A stretch of 64,000 nt of DNA from an uncultured Verrucomicrobiae bacterium (GTDB lineage Bacteria > Verrucomicrobiota > Verrucomicrobiia > Chthoniobacterales > JAFAMB01). Below the pieces are notes generated by a model that worked only from the letters and a program-made list of their open reading frames with translations, was not told the DNA's origin and made no database searches. Shown one piece after another: positions 35,994-38,915 of this stretch. Position 1 is the stretch's first letter; every line of letters begins with the position of its first letter. The DNA is taken from contig CAWEXO010000014.1 in NCBI GenBank assembly GCA_963813025.1, positions 128,001-192,000 on the forward strand, in the 5' to 3' direction. The translations under genes were made by a program, and so were the position numbers.

Positions 35994-36407
35994 TCATTTC
36001 AGGAGCTTTTTGATCTCGACCGCAAGCAACTCGGCACGCTCGCGGGATTGCGACCCGAACCAGATGCAGTCGTAAAATTCCGGCAGCTTCGTACAGGCAA
36101 CACGAACATTCCTCTTTCGCGGAAGCCTGGCCACAAAGCGAATCACCCAGTACCCACGAATTAGTCCCAATTTGTTTTCTAAGTAGAGAGGATAAGTCTT
36201 GAATGCCTGTATTTTTATTACCGCTAGATTACGGTTTTCCCATTCGGCAATAGATTGAAGAATTTCGCCGACGAGTTCTTTGAGCTTAACCGCGTGTTGA
36301 TAAGATTGCTGGTCCGCAAACGCAGCGATCCAGAGAGTCGGAAACGCCAGCGAAACAACTACGAGGAGAGCAACGTTCATCCTAGTAGGGAAGATCGTCA
36401 GGGTCAC
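35994..36407 (-). CDS. Hypothetical membrane-anchored protein
   Basis: 137-aa ORF, lower GC, N-terminal TM segment; no recognisable motif. Confidence 0.35.
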   Translation of the reverse strand: MTLTIFPTRMNVALLVVVSLAFPTLWIAAFADQQSYQHAVKLKELVGEILQSIAEWENRNLAVIKIQAFKTYPLYLENKLGLIRGYWVIRFVARLPRKRNVRVACTKLPEFYDCIWFGSQSRERAELLAVEIKKLLK

Positions 36408-36496
36408 ACTGCGTTCAAGTCCCGCGGCAGGGAGCTAAGGAATCCGCGAGTCAACCTGAACGAATCCGCCCCGCAACATGGCCTTGGCCCTGCTCT

Positions 36497-36615
36497 GGTA
36501 GGGCGAAAATTTATCCGAGCCATAGCGAGGACTCGTTTGAGCCGGACACTGGAGCTGCCACACCGAAGACGGCTCAAACAAGTTCTCGCCTGGTGCTCGA
36601 ATAGATTTTCGCCCT
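36497..36615. repeat. Family B REPIN copy interrupted by IS110 (continues at 37937-37943)
   Basis: GGTAGGGCGAAAATTTATCCGAGC...GGCTCAAACAAGTTCTCGCC...ATTTTCGCC-CT, then the IS, then CT-ACCGG. Confidence 0.9.
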
Positions 36616-36651
36616 TGTACCTTGCCCCACCAATTTTTTTTCCCTTTTAAA

Positions 36652-36858
36652 GCCGCCCGCAAGGGCGGAACTCTGGAGGTGAAGAACTTGGCCGAGGAGG
36701 GTGGAAAACTGCCTCGCCCAAAGGTCGGTAGAACCTGTCCGGTAGATTAGTCCACCCTTCCTCGTGCCGCACCTGCATAAGACCGTACCGTATCTTAGGC
36801 CGTTCCAAACAGGGTTGGAACATAAGCCCGTGTTCACAAGGCTCTGTCAGCAGGCGCG
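36652..36858 (+). ncRNA. Predicted bridge RNA
   Basis: 5' GCAA-tetraloop hairpin (36653-36668). Target loop closed by stem 36693-36705/36751-36764, with guides CCTCGCCC and CCGGTAG. Donor loop closed by 36769-36776/36850-36857, with guides ACCGTATCT and CACAAG. Confidence 0.85.
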
Positions 36859-36910
36859 CGCCCAAGCGCTTCATCAAACAAAGAACCAATTCAACTCGAA
36901 TTCCTGTCTG

Positions 36911-37921
36911 ATGAAAAAACGCTACTGCATGGGTATTGATATGGCAAAAGCAAGCTTTGACTTTTGCCTGCTCTCCAAGAATGGCACTCGCCTGTGGCGG
37001 GGAAAGTTCAGCAATGATGCGACCGGCATTGGAGCATTTTTAGCCCAACTCCAGGCCCGCTCTTGGCCGCTCTCCCAGATCCACTTCGCCCTGGAAGCCA
37101 CCGGGGTCTACGGGAAGAGATTGATCGCCGCTCTGCACCAAGCAGGCTTGGCGGTCAGCGTGCTCAATCCCGCCCAAGTCAAATACTTTGCTTTCTCGGT
37201 CCTGCGCCGCACCAAAAATGATCGGGTTGATGCGGCCATCATTGCCCAGTTTTGTCTGGAGCGAAAACCACTGGCCACTCGGCCGCTGCGCCCCCTTGAG
37301 GAAGAATTCAAACTGCTGGTGCGGGAGCGCGAAAGCCGGGTTGGCGAGCTCATCCGGGAACAGAACCGGGTGAAAAAAGACCCTTACCCAATTGCGCTGC
37401 CCGAGCTTGTCAGCCAACAGCGTGGCCAACGACTCGCCCAGCTCAAGAAAGAAATCGCTCAGCTGGAGTCGGCCATCTTCGGCTTAGTCGCGGCTGATCA
37501 GGCTTTAAGCCGCCAAAGCCAACTGCTGTGCTCTATTCCCGGCATTGCCCAGCTCACAGCCGCCAAGCTGCTGGCCGAGCTGGCCGGTAAAGAGTTCCAA
37601 TCGGCTCGGCAGTTGGCGGCCTATGCTGGGCTGAATCCTTCTGAATTCCGTTCCGGTGTCTCGCTCTACGGCAAAACCACCCTGTGCAAAATCGGCAACG
37701 CTTTCCTGCGCAAAGCACTCTATTTGCCGGCCGCCGTTGCTCGCCGCTGGTGCAAACCCATCCAGCAATGGGCCGCAGGTCTCGAGTCGCGCAAGCTCCA
37801 CTCCCTGGCTATCCGCGGTGCCGTCATGCGAAAACTCCTGCACATCGCCTTCGGTGTTCTCGCTCACCAACAACCCTACAACCCTAACCTGGCCCGCCCT
37901 TCCTTAAAGCAATGCCCTTGA
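36911..37921 (+). CDS. IS110 recombinase (DEDD RuvC-like plus Tnp domain)
   Basis: GIDMAK, LEATG, KNDRVDA (DEDD tetrad); SIPGIA, AYAGL, FRSG (catalytic Ser region), GNAFLRKALY, AVMRKLL. Confidence 0.95.
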   Translation: MKKRYCMGIDMAKASFDFCLLSKNGTRLWRGKFSNDATGIGAFLAQLQARSWPLSQIHFALEATGVYGKRLIAALHQAGLAVSVLNPAQVKYFAFSVLRRTKNDRVDAAIIAQFCLERKPLATRPLRPLEEEFKLLVRERESRVGELIREQNRVKKDPYPIALPELVSQQRGQRLAQLKKEIAQLESAIFGLVAADQALSRQSQLLCSIPGIAQLTAAKLLAELAGKEFQSARQLAAYAGLNPSEFRSGVSLYGKTTLCKIGNAFLRKALYLPAAVARRWCKPIQQWAAGLESRKLHSLAIRGAVMRKLLHIAFGVLAHQQPYNPNLARPSLKQCP

Positions 37922-38029
37922 CATCCAAGACCGTATCTACCGGTTGTGGGCAATCGTGGTGAGCCCGGTCAATTGTCTCGCAAACGGAGCGGGTGAGCGG
38001 TCGAACCCGGAACGACCGACTGAAGGATT

Positions 38030-38251: not shown

Positions 38252-38540
38252 TCATTCGATGACAACGACCCGCCCACGCCGCGTCGGATGTTCTACAAGC
38301 TCGTGAGCCCGAGCAATTTCTGAAAGCGGAGTTCGTTCGGCAATCTCGAAACCTGACCACCCGGCCTCGAGCGCAGAGTTCAGATCCTTGGCGGCTAACC
38401 TCTTTGCATCCTTTGGGAAGTCGTCGCTTCCCAGGAAGCATAACCGAATGTTCTTGAACACCATCGTCCAGAAAGGGATTTTGGGTGTCCCACTATCAGT
38501 GGCATAGGTGGCGATAGACCCGCCCGTGTTCAGCAATTCG
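38252..38540 (-). pseudogene. C-terminal remnant of an NADPH:quinone reductase
   Basis: GSIATYAT...LSEIARAHELVE...GRVVV; N-terminus absent. Confidence 0.65.
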
Positions 38541-38915
38541 ACCTGCCAACCTGTGCCGGCAAGCCGGCGAGCGTGGCGTAAGCGAGTGCTACCGGTACCG
38601 GGTACGCCGCGAGCGTAATACCCGCAAGCATATCGTCTTTCAACCAACGCGCCTCGTATGTCGGTACCCATTGTGCAGGTGGAAAGATCGCTTTAAAATC
38701 CGTTGGCTTTCGGCGGGCTGGAAGCCGTTGCTTCTGTCTGGCAGCCTTGGACTATCCAATCCGCGGAGAGATAAGTGTCGATCCCGAAGCGTTCGAGCTT
38801 GTCTATGAGCAATTGAGGAAACCTGGGAAGTGAAGGACGGTTTTGGGAATGGGTCGCGATGAATTGGAGGCATTCGCGACTGTTCGGGTTTCTCCAGCAA
38901 ATGTCTCGCAGCAAG

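Follow-up and report, generated by a model that had tools for sequence, protein, structure and literature searches.

A probable bridge-RNA-guided IS110-group insertion sequence in a REP-like repeat of a Verrucomicrobiae bacterium

The window analyzed here is a 64,000-nt stretch of DNA from an uncultured Verrucomicrobiae bacterium. It contains a complete IS110-group insertion sequence of 1323 bp (36616-37938), which carries a recombinase gene and is inserted in one copy of a REP-like host repeat. This repeat copy, the only one inspected for location, lies between ORFs at 35994-36407 and 38252-38671. The non-coding ends of the element are unequal, with 295 nt on the left (36616-36910) and 17 nt after the stop codon on the right (37922-37938). 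The features of the insertion and its gene are as follows.

36570..36613, + strand: REP-like repeat, left half (cggctcaaacaagttctcgc..gctcgaatagattttcgcc); its last letters are the left target TTTTCGCC; fits the consensus of 95 genomic repeat copies
36614..36615, + strand: left copy of the CT core dinucleotide; occupied sites have CT on both sides
36616..37938, + strand: IS110-group insertion sequence of 1323 bp, from the right donor TGTACC.. through ..ACCGTAT-CT
36911..37921, + strand: recombinase gene, 336 aa, with a RuvC-like DEDD domain (residues 8-155) and a Tnp domain (204-281)
37930..37938, + strand: left donor ACCGTAT, followed by the right-hand CT core (CT at 37937-38)
37939..37960, + strand: right half of the REP-like repeat, beginning with the right target ACCGG; defined from copy flanks and the repeat consensus

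The left junction reads TTTTCGCC-CT-TGTACC and the right junction ACCGTAT-CT-ACCGG, with the letters that a preliminary description of this DNA had given; the left CT lies at 36614-15 and the right CT at 37937-38. The core features of the IS110 group are present: a short CT is shared by target and donor, the ends are precise, and there is no long target duplication.

The catalytic residues of the IS621 recombinase are named as D11, E60, D102, D105, and S241 (PMC11208158). In the recombinase of the present element they align with D10, E62, D104, D107, and S248 (the PDB chain numbering of IS621 is offset by 2 in the alignment). Residues 8-155 match DEDD_Tnp_IS110 (PF01548; E 9.3e-32, 110 bits against a cut-off of 29), and Transposase_20 (PF02371) is matched with an E-value of 1.1e-21, including the conserved catalytic Ser-Gly. 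This pair, S248-G249, aligns with IS621 S241-G242 and is invariant in six orthologues. E62, D104, D107, S248, and G249 are invariant in the orthologue alignment, and D10 is kept in all rows except one (L029, 53% identity). That sequence was treated as decayed; its first catalytic Asp is lost and its left junction is degenerate. The best solved relative of the recombinase is IS621 (E 1.2e-45, 159 bits), followed by ISCro4 (E 5.5e-44), and the earlier assignment to an IS621-related IS110 recombinase is upheld by the domains, the catalytic residues, and this ranking.

The nearest IS relatives of the element are in Verrucomicrobiota MAGs, and its host is apparently a soil bacterium. A tblastn search against plasmids returned thousands of IS110 relatives with less than 60% identity. 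One of these, an Enterobacter plasmid element (L124), is related to IS621 (its protein scores 221 bits) without being IS621; its right end was not found within the 121 bases read. Exact look-up of the recombinase protein in a collection of 15 billion proteins gave no match, and blastn (“distant” mode) with the element gave none in all complete E. coli genomes.

Multiple copies of the element are found in the genome. Seven are full-length, each spanning positions 1-1323 with 99-100% identity, and deleted derivatives are present beside them. One copy is interrupted by an IS3-type element, and several have internal deletions. The 336-aa ORF at 36911-37921 encodes both Pfam domains and is intact in 7/7 full-length copies, so the description of the system as complete and intact holds. 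Sequence differences among copies fall outside all guides. Collecting the copies with their flanks, a check proposed at the outset, revealed one shared insertion site in all 12 two-ended copies. The ends are identical in all 12, as are the CT on both sides and the ACCGG directly after the element; TCGCC-CT precedes the element in 11 and TCGCT-CT in one. The intact site is TCGCC-CT-ACCGG.

The target lies in an abundant host repeat. The intact site TCGCCCTACCGG occurs 95 times in the genome, compared with approximately one occurrence expected from base composition. The repeat consensus spans about 80-110 nt and is confined to the bacterial family of this host, and repeat conservation continues leftward past the guided bases for approximately 14 nt. 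Repeat units often form inverted pairs about 105-115 nt apart, and one such partner of the window repeat is found on the minus strand at 36495-36509. When a typical unit was folded as DNA, only small helices formed (-16.9 kcal/mol), and the unit is no obvious palindrome. The repeat had been called a REP. It is abundant, interspersed, lineage-restricted, and often arranged in inverted pairs, but the unit is not obviously palindromic, and we use the term REP-like.

Sequencing runs, examined as Logan contigs, yielded an empty allele. A 782-nt contig from a soil metagenome (run X1) joins 36613 to 37937, omitting exactly 1323 bases, with two letters shared at the joint. It covers 314 and 155 nt of flank, with three and five differences, respectively; because 8/469 flank positions differ from the window, it comes from another strain. 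Runs X3 and X5 provided short pieces only, 90-95% similar, and the contigs of run X4 contained no piece of the stretch. None of the runs listed for the stretch was an RNA run.

Instead of transposition, exchange between repeat units (homologous recombination or gene conversion) might have multiplied copies flanked by repeats, and two copies (C11:733732 and C13:237820) do share an identical 40-nt left flank. However, the right flanks past ACCGG differ in all 12 two-ended copies, and each copy has the same two exact ends with duplicated CT. What is missing from the empty allele is exactly the element, and the same element architecture is found at unrelated sites in other genomes. We consider multiplication by recombination exceedingly improbable.

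The left end contains candidate guide segments for both halves of the target and of the donor. They are arranged in two predicted loop modules.

36653..36668, + strand: 5' hairpin of the predicted bridge RNA, CCGCCC-GCAA-GGGCGG (helix 1, 97.1% paired in 35 sequences)
36689..36769, + strand: predicted target-binding loop module; closing stem 36689-36701 with 36756-36769, internal loop, distal hairpin
36713..36719, + strand: left target guide CUCGCC+C; repeats the left-target top strand and the first core base; predicted to pair with the bottom strand
36722..36736, + strand: distal hairpin of the target loop, AGGU-CGGUAGA-ACCU (helix 5, 99.3% paired, invariant)
36739..36745, + strand: right target guide CCGGUAG; exact reverse complement of CT-ACCGG
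36746..36747, + strand: AU directly 3' of the right target guide; invariant in orthologues
36770..36856, + strand: predicted donor-binding loop module; closing stem at about 36772-76 with 36850-54, internal loop, distal stem-loop 36798-36829
36787..36795, + strand: left donor guide ACCGUAU+CU; equal to the right end of the element plus core (DNA ACCGTATCT)
36836..36840, + strand: right donor guide ACAAG; reverse complement of CT-TGT, within CACAAG at 36835-40

Each of the four guide strings occurs once in the 295-nt left end, at the position reported in the preliminary description. When the left end was shuffled 50,000 times, the individual strings turned up in 1688, 976, 55, and 12410 shuffles, respectively, and all four together in none. 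The donor loop holds the guides for both donor halves, ACCGUAUCU and ACAAG. In the target loop, CCTCGCCC at 36712-19 matches the left flank of this copy at 6/8 positions, and CTCGCCC (36713-19) agrees in full with the TTCTCGCC-C target variant; the left target guide and its own flank are mismatched at position -6 (C vs. T). The same guide reads ..CCC-A, so that the second core base faces A rather than U; orthologues vary at this guide position. Both core bases, C and T, are covered by the right target, left donor, and right donor guides. The left target guide is a departure in one guide of four and no family-defining failure.

Handshake guides have been described in IS621, where A81/U82 are assigned to donor A6/T7 (PMC11208158). 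By analogy, once strands have been exchanged, AU at 36746-36747 could pair with donor A6 and T7. The CGGUAGA loop of the distal hairpin (36726-32) was considered as a second copy of the right guide, and it was rejected because it does not track the target in orthologues.

Structural conservation of the left end was evaluated in 35 aligned sequences. RNAalifold predicted the 5' hairpin and two internal-loop stems, with 41 pairs and 97.1% of cells paired, compared with 35-52% when the 3' partners were slid. Ten pairs changed on both sides, against 4.6 +/- 1.1 in shuffles. The 5' hairpin has a GNRA tetraloop in orthologues (GAAA, GUAA, GGAA). Helix 2, the closing stem of the target loop, has 13 pairs (98.2% paired), three of them with compensatory changes, and helix 6 in the donor loop module has six pairs (97.1% paired), two with compensatory changes. 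Conserved, covarying stems thus support the early proposal that each loop is closed by a stem.

Scoring against a bridge-RNA covariance model, another check suggested beforehand, was done with our own model (R1), constructed from 34 orthologues and no sequence of this genome. R1 gave a single match in the window (36688-36860, + strand; 165.5 bits, E 2e-41), covering both loop modules. It also matches the left ends of distant IS110 elements, including that of the Enterobacter plasmid element L124. A search of the stretch with Rfam 15 at E up to 10 returned no bridge-RNA match. Chance Rfam matches to mir-127, SL1, and sR32 were rejected, as all were far below gathering scores.

Orthologues with different insertion sites allow guides and flanks to be compared directly. 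Column-wise, the left guide agreed with its cognate flank at 5.38 of 8 positions compared with 3.90 for non-cognate flanks (29 distinct pairs), and the right guide at 6.41 of 7 compared with 4.31 (17 distinct pairs). The observed fit was reached in 0/10,000 permutations for both halves, counts that overstate significance because related sequences are non-independent. Without a fixed register, the median exact match was 6.5 nt on the left (34 distinct orthologue/insertion-site pairs) and 7 nt on the right (28 distinct pairs), against 3 nt for non-cognate combinations on either side. The right target guide fits the flank perfectly (7/7) in 11 of 17 distinct orthologue pairs. Poor fits also occur, with exact matches of 1-3 nt in 4/34 left pairs and 2-4 nt in 4/28 right pairs. 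Flanks such as ..TGCGC-CT-TTGTGG, ..GCAACC-CT-CCGGG, and ..AGTCC-CT-TCGGG are accompanied by matching changes in both loop segments.

Donor guides change with the element ends as well. Changes in the left donor guide parallel those in the variant donor ends ACCCTAT (in 3/3 loci seen), ACCTTAT, and ACGGTAT, at five variant-donor loci; in L056 and L067, a G stands opposite T in this guide, which is wobble-compatible. On the right, ACAAGG is kept in 32/35 aligned orthologues, with exceptions seen by eye in L049 (AUAAGG) and L051 (GCAAGG). CT-TGT opens all 49 left ends, but this reflects the selection rule, since orthologue ends were located by the conserved motifs CTTGT and GTATCT. A left end was obtained for 48/69 tabulated loci, so elements with divergent donors are under-sampled.

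The recombinase itself could also select the site, by reading repeat sequence or structure in a genuine IS110 element, with the RNA-DNA matches playing a minor role or none. Every insertion of the present element is within one structured repeat family, the repeat is conserved beyond the guided bases by the approximately 14 nt noted above, and a target-encoded stem-loop is described as adding specificity for ISPpu10 (10.64898/2026.03.19.712850). Site choice mainly by the protein does not predict matching loop changes in orthologues with quite different flanks, and the recombinase is homologous to that of IS621, for which RNA guidance is reported (PMC11208160). We therefore regard it as very unlikely. 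Insertions unrelated to the guides were the outcome named in advance as damaging to RNA guidance; instead, guides track flanks across orthologues.

Candidate promoter elements are divided between the two ends of the element.

37918..37923, + strand: TTGACA, perfect -35 hexamer at the right end, overlapping the stop codon
36618..36623, + strand: TACCTT, -10-like hexamer, matching TATAAT at 3/6 positions only (A2 and T6 kept)

Read by eye, the joined right and left ends of a circle would present TTGACA (6/6), a 17-nt spacer, and TACCTT (3/6; weak). TTGAC or TTGAT is equidistant from the end in 24/25 distinct orthologue right ends, and orthologues have TACCTT or TATCTT at the -10-like place. A promoter scan of the integrated copy found 0 sigma-70-like sites.

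We propose that the element excises as a circle, in which right-end TTGACA and left-end TACCTT would be joined as a promoter. A bridge RNA of about 230 nt would be transcribed from the left end (approximately 36630 to 36860). Its first internal loop would pair with both strands of (T)CTCGCC-CT-ACCGG in the REP-like repeat, and its second with the joined ends of the element, ACCGTAT-CT-TGTAC. A tetramer of the 336-aa DEDD/Ser recombinase, which would bind this RNA, is predicted to exchange strands at the CT core. Judged from sequence, it is highly likely that 36616-37938 is a complete, probably still mobile IS110-group element working like E. coli IS621. “Programmable recombinase” is a designation for which it is a candidate.

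Alternatively, the copies may be fossils that were RNA-guided during their spread and are no longer mobile in this genome, with the empty allele representing the ancestral state in a related strain. The weak -10 hexamer, the copy broken by an IS3-type element, the internal deletions, and the origin of the empty-site contig in a different strain (8/469 flank differences) are consistent with this view. On the other hand, the ORF is kept in 7/7 full-length copies that are 99-100% identical, and the catalytic residues and all four guides are intact. No element copy was seen in the same-genus genome G001 (79% complete), which points to recent spread. Loss of mobility is thus unlikely, if less so than the alternatives above, and we favor an element that is probably still mobile.

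Deletion derivatives of what may be a sister lineage are also present. One form of 1010 bp is found at two different repeat sites (1005/1010 bases identical), and another is 630 bp. They lack the catalytic D104/D107 region, yet retain the two ends and their own complete, predicted bridge RNA. Its left guide, CUUCGCC-C, fits the major repeat variant better. These derivatives may belong to a two-tier system, with an autonomous element and a diverged sister lineage surviving only as deletion derivatives, a possibility that we consider tentative and somewhat doubtful. If the full-length recombinase mobilizes the derivatives in trans, they would be guide-RNA-bearing MITEs competing for the same approximately 100 sites. 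Together with the orthologue series (a single scaffold with many natural targets, and a left guide indifferent to the second core base), a two-tier system would provide a natural data set on bridge-RNA retargeting.

IS621 is the closest model for the present element. Both share the same recombinase plan (RuvC-like DEDD, coiled-coil, and Tnp, with five catalytic residues), the CT core, and A-T-C-T-T at donor positions 6-10 (IS621 as given in PMC11208158). In both, the RNA (predicted here) is encoded by the long left end; its 5' hairpin is followed by the target and donor loops, and each loop consists of stem, left guide, stem-loop, and right guide. The candidate -35 lies in the right end and the -10-like hexamer in the left end, the arrangement given for IS621, and insertion is into a host repeat in both. 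RNA positions of IS621 were compared through the descriptions in PMC11208160 and PMC11208158. The two are remotely related in sequence (159 bits), and their targets differ: (T)CTCGCC-CT-ACCGG here and ATCAGGC-CT-AC in IS621 (PMC11208160). The right target guide has 7 nt including the core, compared with 4 bp described for wild-type IS621, and in the left target guide an A faces the second core base, whereas pairing with both core bases is described for IS621 (PMC11208160). The RNA is longer here, with approximately 173 nt for the two loops and 230 nt from the presumed start, compared with 177 nt for the IS621 bridge RNA. The CT core, shared site, two-loop RNA, and covarying guides support the initial reading of a divergent IS621-type element with its own target repeat.

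Other IS110-family systems provide further comparisons. ISCro4/IS622 (PDB 9t56) has the same domain order as the present recombinase; it is enterobacterial and is described as engineered for use in human cells (10.1101/2025.05.14.653916), while the present element is known from sequence alone. In Pseudomonas putida, copies of the IS110-family elements ISPpu9 and ISPpu10 are all reported in REP or conserved intergenic repeats (PMC12288879); host phylum, repeat sequences, and guide sequences all differ from those of the present element. MITE-like derivatives of ISPpu9 (MITEPpu9) are believed to be mobilized in trans (PMC12288879), and the deletion derivatives described here similarly keep their ends and bridge RNA at separate repeat sites. 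A literature search on non-autonomous or MITE-like IS110 elements and on Verrucomicrobia IS110 bridge systems found MITEPpu9 and nothing on the present element, although this clade may already figure in published IS110 trees or orthologue tables. The IS1111 group has the same recombinase family and RNA-guided logic, and a long left end with the RNA is described as separating the IS110 group from it (PMC11208160). In IS1111 elements the RNA (bridge RNA or seekRNA) is in a long right end and subterminal inverted repeats are 7-17 bp, whereas here the left end has 295 nt and 17 nt follow the stop codon.

Bridge RNAs have been predicted in 85.7% of catalogued IS110-group elements (PMC11208160). Because they are already predicted for most of the group, no new mechanism is revealed here, and the element is a well-supported but ordinary addition to the bridge-RNA system described in 2024. 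It offers a clean natural case of bridge-RNA guidance from outside Proteobacteria: a single scaffold, 12 insertions that share one position in the repeat, an empty allele, and soil orthologues by the dozen in which guides and targets changed together. The orthologue set offers ready natural guide/target pairs for testing another bridge recombinase, and the comparative data are independent support for the IS621 model.

The IS110-group insertion sequence at window positions 36616-37938 (+) has the junctions given in the preliminary description. The left junction reads TTTTCGCC-CT-TGTACC with CT at 36614-15, and the right junction reads ACCGTAT-CT-ACCGG with CT at 37937-38. The 1323 bases between the junctions contain a single long ORF (36911-37921) encoding 336 aa. 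In the soil-metagenome run X1, a 782-nt assembled contig joins 36613 to 37937, a gap of exactly 1323 bases relative to the window, and the two sides of the joint have two letters in common. The contig has 314 nt of left flank with three differences and 155 nt of right flank with five. This contig is the same locus, element-free, in a close relative. The empty allele confirms the element ends and the two-base core, and the insertion is polymorphic.

The four guide strings were found at the coordinates reported for them (target guides at 36713-19 and 36739-45), once each within the 295-nt left end. Of 50,000 shuffled left ends, 1688 contained CTCGCCC, 976 contained CCGGTAG, 55 contained ACCGTATCT, and 12410 contained ACAAG; none of the 50,000 contained all four jointly.

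The genome contains 95 uninterrupted copies of the site, TCGCCCTACCGG, compared to about one expected from base composition, and TTYTCGCCCTACCGG is found 82 times. Conservation peaks at this site within a repeat of ~80-110 nt (consensus ..ccggctcaaacaagttctcgctaagGCTCgaATaAATTT-TCGCCCTACCGG-cnCaGGgcc..), units of which are frequently arranged as inverted pairs. Five of 30 related genomes, all of the same family, carry the 15-mer site (35, 23, 15, 5, and 2 copies), and it was not found in any of the 12 genomes that represent the order's other families. Recombinase relatives (E <= 1e-60) are present in only three of the 30 related genomes, and none was found in three genomes with 15-35 repeat copies. 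Because the repeat is common in genomes without recombinase relatives, it is a host feature exploited by the element and not the element's footprint. The target had been called a REP; "REP-like" is fair given the copy number and inverted pairs, but the unit is not an obvious palindrome. A second, unoccupied unit lies inverted ~105 nt upstream of the insertion (36495-36509, - strand). Its site is TTTTCGCC-CT-ACCAG, with one mismatch to the right guide, and a terminator-like hairpin at 36535-36516 (-) is part of it.

Copies were counted in the window's own assembly, G000 (4.42 Mb, 16 contigs, 80% complete). Seven copies span element positions 1-1323 at 99-100% identity, and the 336-aa ORF is kept in all seven, which bears out the description of the element as intact. 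An eighth copy (G000:C8:36968-38210) has an in-frame 81-nt deletion that leaves a 309-aa ORF. This deletion covers element coordinates 700-780 (approximately residues 136-162), in the region matching the IS621 coiled-coil domain. In a ninth copy (L123, G000:C9:67089-69145), coordinates 297-1011 are replaced by an IS3-type element, assigned from the appearance of its ORFs (a 119-aa OrfA and a 345-aa OrfB, in opposite orientation to the copy). Three further copies belong to a diverged sister lineage and carry internal deletions, and a thirteenth piece is a left end only. The other copies and their flanks agree with the preliminary description in that all 12 two-ended copies share the insertion site: ACCGG is directly to the right of each, and TCGCC-CT (11 copies) or TCGCT-CT (one copy) is to the left. 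Beyond the repeat, flanking sequence varies between copies. No differences among the eight near-identical copies fall inside any guide. Ten of their 24 variable positions are within the left end (36616-36910, 22% of element length), all outside the four guides, and the rest are in 36911-37938.

The sister-lineage deletion derivatives are as follows:
G000:C15:123618-124627 (-), derivative L010
G000:C9:218161-219171 (+), derivative L011
G000:C12:154618-155247 (+), derivative L013

Compared to the window copy, 870 of 1008 aligned bases are identical in this lineage. The two derivatives of 1010 and 1011 bp are identical to each other at 1005 of 1010 positions and occupy different repeat sites; their common 306-nt deletion removes the D104/D107 region. 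In the 630-bp derivative, most of the gene is gone. Both ends and a full bridge RNA, with left guide CUUCGCC-C, persist in all three derivatives, which look like MITE-like elements mobilised in trans. A separate 141-nt fragment (L018, G000:C4:5754-5894) consists of the two guide loops only (element coordinates 99-239; 94% identical). At its 5' edge, the left target guide (TCGCCC..) follows directly on repeat sequence (..cggctcgaacgagtCT), as if the repeat had recombined with the guide-encoding segment, and an intact target site lies ~80 nt away. The whole genome has 40 matches to the IS110 DEDD domain in several distinct score groups, including ~10 copies at 76 bits and ~10 at 75 bits, and therefore carries several other multi-copy IS110-family lineages.

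A one-genome-per-species scan identified relatives at 47-77% identity, mainly in Verrucomicrobiota MAGs, and a metagenome scan added 80 loci. We tabulated the 69 loci whose match starts near the N-terminus. CTTGT is located 270-310 nt upstream of the start codon in 48 of these; the remaining 21, truncated at contig ends or more distant, were left out. Orthologue flanks are diverse (..GTCGCCG-CT-ACCGA, ..CGCGCC-CT-ACAAG, ..AGTCC-CT-TCGGG, ..TTGCGC-CT-TCAGC, ..CGCAACC-CT-CCGGG, and ..TGCGC-CT-TTGTGG), and both target-loop segments vary together with them, in line with the proposed fit of guides to targets. When compared in fixed columns of the alignment, left guides agree with their own flanks at 5.38 of 8 positions and with other flanks at 3.90 (29 distinct pairs); for right guides, the values are 6.41 of 7 and 4.31 (17 distinct pairs, 11 perfect). 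Neither observed match was reached in 10,000 permutations, figures that are generous because related sequences are not independent; changes are nonetheless seen on several branches, and they affect both halves of the site. Some lineages have the left guide shifted by one base, so matches were also measured as the longest exact run up to the core (median 6.5 vs. 3 for 34 left pairs, and 7 vs. 3 for 28 right pairs). Fits were poor in four left pairs (1-3 nt) and four right pairs (2-4 nt). The left donor guide tracks donor variants, with ACCCTAT in all three loci with a visible right end, ACCTTAT in one locus, and ACGGTAT in one. At two loci the donor guide has a G facing T, where a wobble pair with the bottom strand could still form.

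Folded as a single sequence, 36640-36911 does moderately better than its shuffles (z = -3.1). The two-loop fold proposed earlier is backed by pairing and compensatory changes in an alignment of 35 sequences. The consensus has a 5' hairpin with a GNRA-type tetraloop, a long stem closing a first internal loop that bears a small invariant distal hairpin, and a second stem closing a second internal loop that bears a variable distal stem-loop. Standard pairs fill 97.1% of cells, compared to 35-52% when 3' partners are slid by 1-3 columns. Both-side changes occur at 10 pairs (4.6 +/- 1.1 in shuffles), and two first-stem and two second-stem pairs each show them in five to seven sequences. A search of Rfam 15 gave no bridge-RNA match, so we built a two-loop covariance model from 34 orthologues, with every sequence of this genome excluded. 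Its sole match in the 64-kb window is 36688-36860 (+), at 165.5 bits (E 2e-41; model E-values are rough because calibration was short), where the bridge RNA had been placed. The model also matches this genome's diverged copies and, at full length, regions directly upstream of far more distant IS110 recombinases. An example is an element on an Enterobacter plasmid (29 bits, E 7e-6); its recombinase reaches 221 bits in comparison with IS621.

The recombinase has Pfam domains DEDD_Tnp_IS110 (E 9e-32, residues 8-155) and Transposase_20 (E 1e-21, residues 204-281). Of the proteins with solved structures, the transposase of IS621 is closest in sequence (8wt6; E 1.2e-45 over residues 5-327), and that of ISCro4 (9t56; E 5.5e-44) is also among the best. 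D10, E62, D104, D107, and S248-G249 align with 8wt6 chain residues D13, E62, D104, D107, and S243-G244. Because that chain has two extra residues relative to the native protein, these correspond to IS621 D11, E60, D102, D105, and S241-G242; D11, E60, D102, D105, and S241 are named as the composite active site (PMC11208158). E62, D104, D107, S248, and G249 are unchanged across six orthologues, and D10 is present in every compared orthologue except L029 (CAWJVG010000018.1, 53% identity), which is probably a decaying copy. In L029, SVL replaces GID, removing the first catalytic Asp, and the left junction is no longer CT-TGTA; its right guide, CCCGGAG, still fits its right flank.

Two promoter-like motifs are brought together when the right and left ends join (RE-LE) in the excised circle:
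37918-23, TTGACA, -35 box in the right end, overlapping the stop codon
36618-23, TACCTT, -10 position in the left end, 17 nt downstream of TTGACA in the circle

The -35 box is at the same distance from the end in 24 of 25 distinct orthologue right ends, and the orthologue -10 position is TACCTT or TATCTT. Only three of six positions in the element's -10 agree with consensus. A promoter scan of the integrated copy found no sigma-70-like site. In IS621, a promoter is formed at the junction (PMC11208160); the RE-LE arrangement is consistent with such a junction promoter but is not proof of one.

From homology and covariation, we infer that excision to a circle would start expression of the bridge RNA and probably also of the recombinase. 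Donor guides ACCGUAUCU (36787-95) and ACAAG (36836-40) would pair with the joined element ends, as the target guides would with the host site, and the recombinase would cleave after CT, followed by strand exchange. AU (36746-47) and G (36841) are invariant in orthologues. By position, AU could pair with donor A6/T7 and G with target C7 once strands are exchanged, in the manner of the IS621 handshake guides (PMC11208158).

As an individual, the element is new, since its exact protein was not found in a large protein collection and its nearest relatives are 72-79% identical. Its clade may already be listed in published IS110 tables; the study by Durrant et al. covers thousands of reconstructed IS110 insertion sites and has bridge-RNA predictions for 85.7% of the IS110-group elements catalogued (PMC11208160). 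REP targeting and MITE-like derivatives have already been described for ISPpu9 and ISPpu10 (PMC12288879; 10.64898/2026.03.19.712850). Judged by its sequence, the element belongs with the IS621-type bridge recombinase systems and is not new in kind. As in IS621, a 5' stem-loop is followed by a target-binding loop (stem, left guide, stem-loop, right guide) and a donor-binding loop of like arrangement (PMC11208160; PMC11208158). The two differ in target, and the RNA is longer here. The right target guide has 7 nt, compared to 4 bp in wild-type IS621, and the left target guide has A instead of U for the second core base, a position variable in the clade. Unlike in IS621, a mismatch at target position -6 is tolerated: with guide CUCGCC, left flanks of nine near-identical-lineage copies are TTTTCGCC (five), TTCTCGCC (three), and GTGTTCGCC (one).
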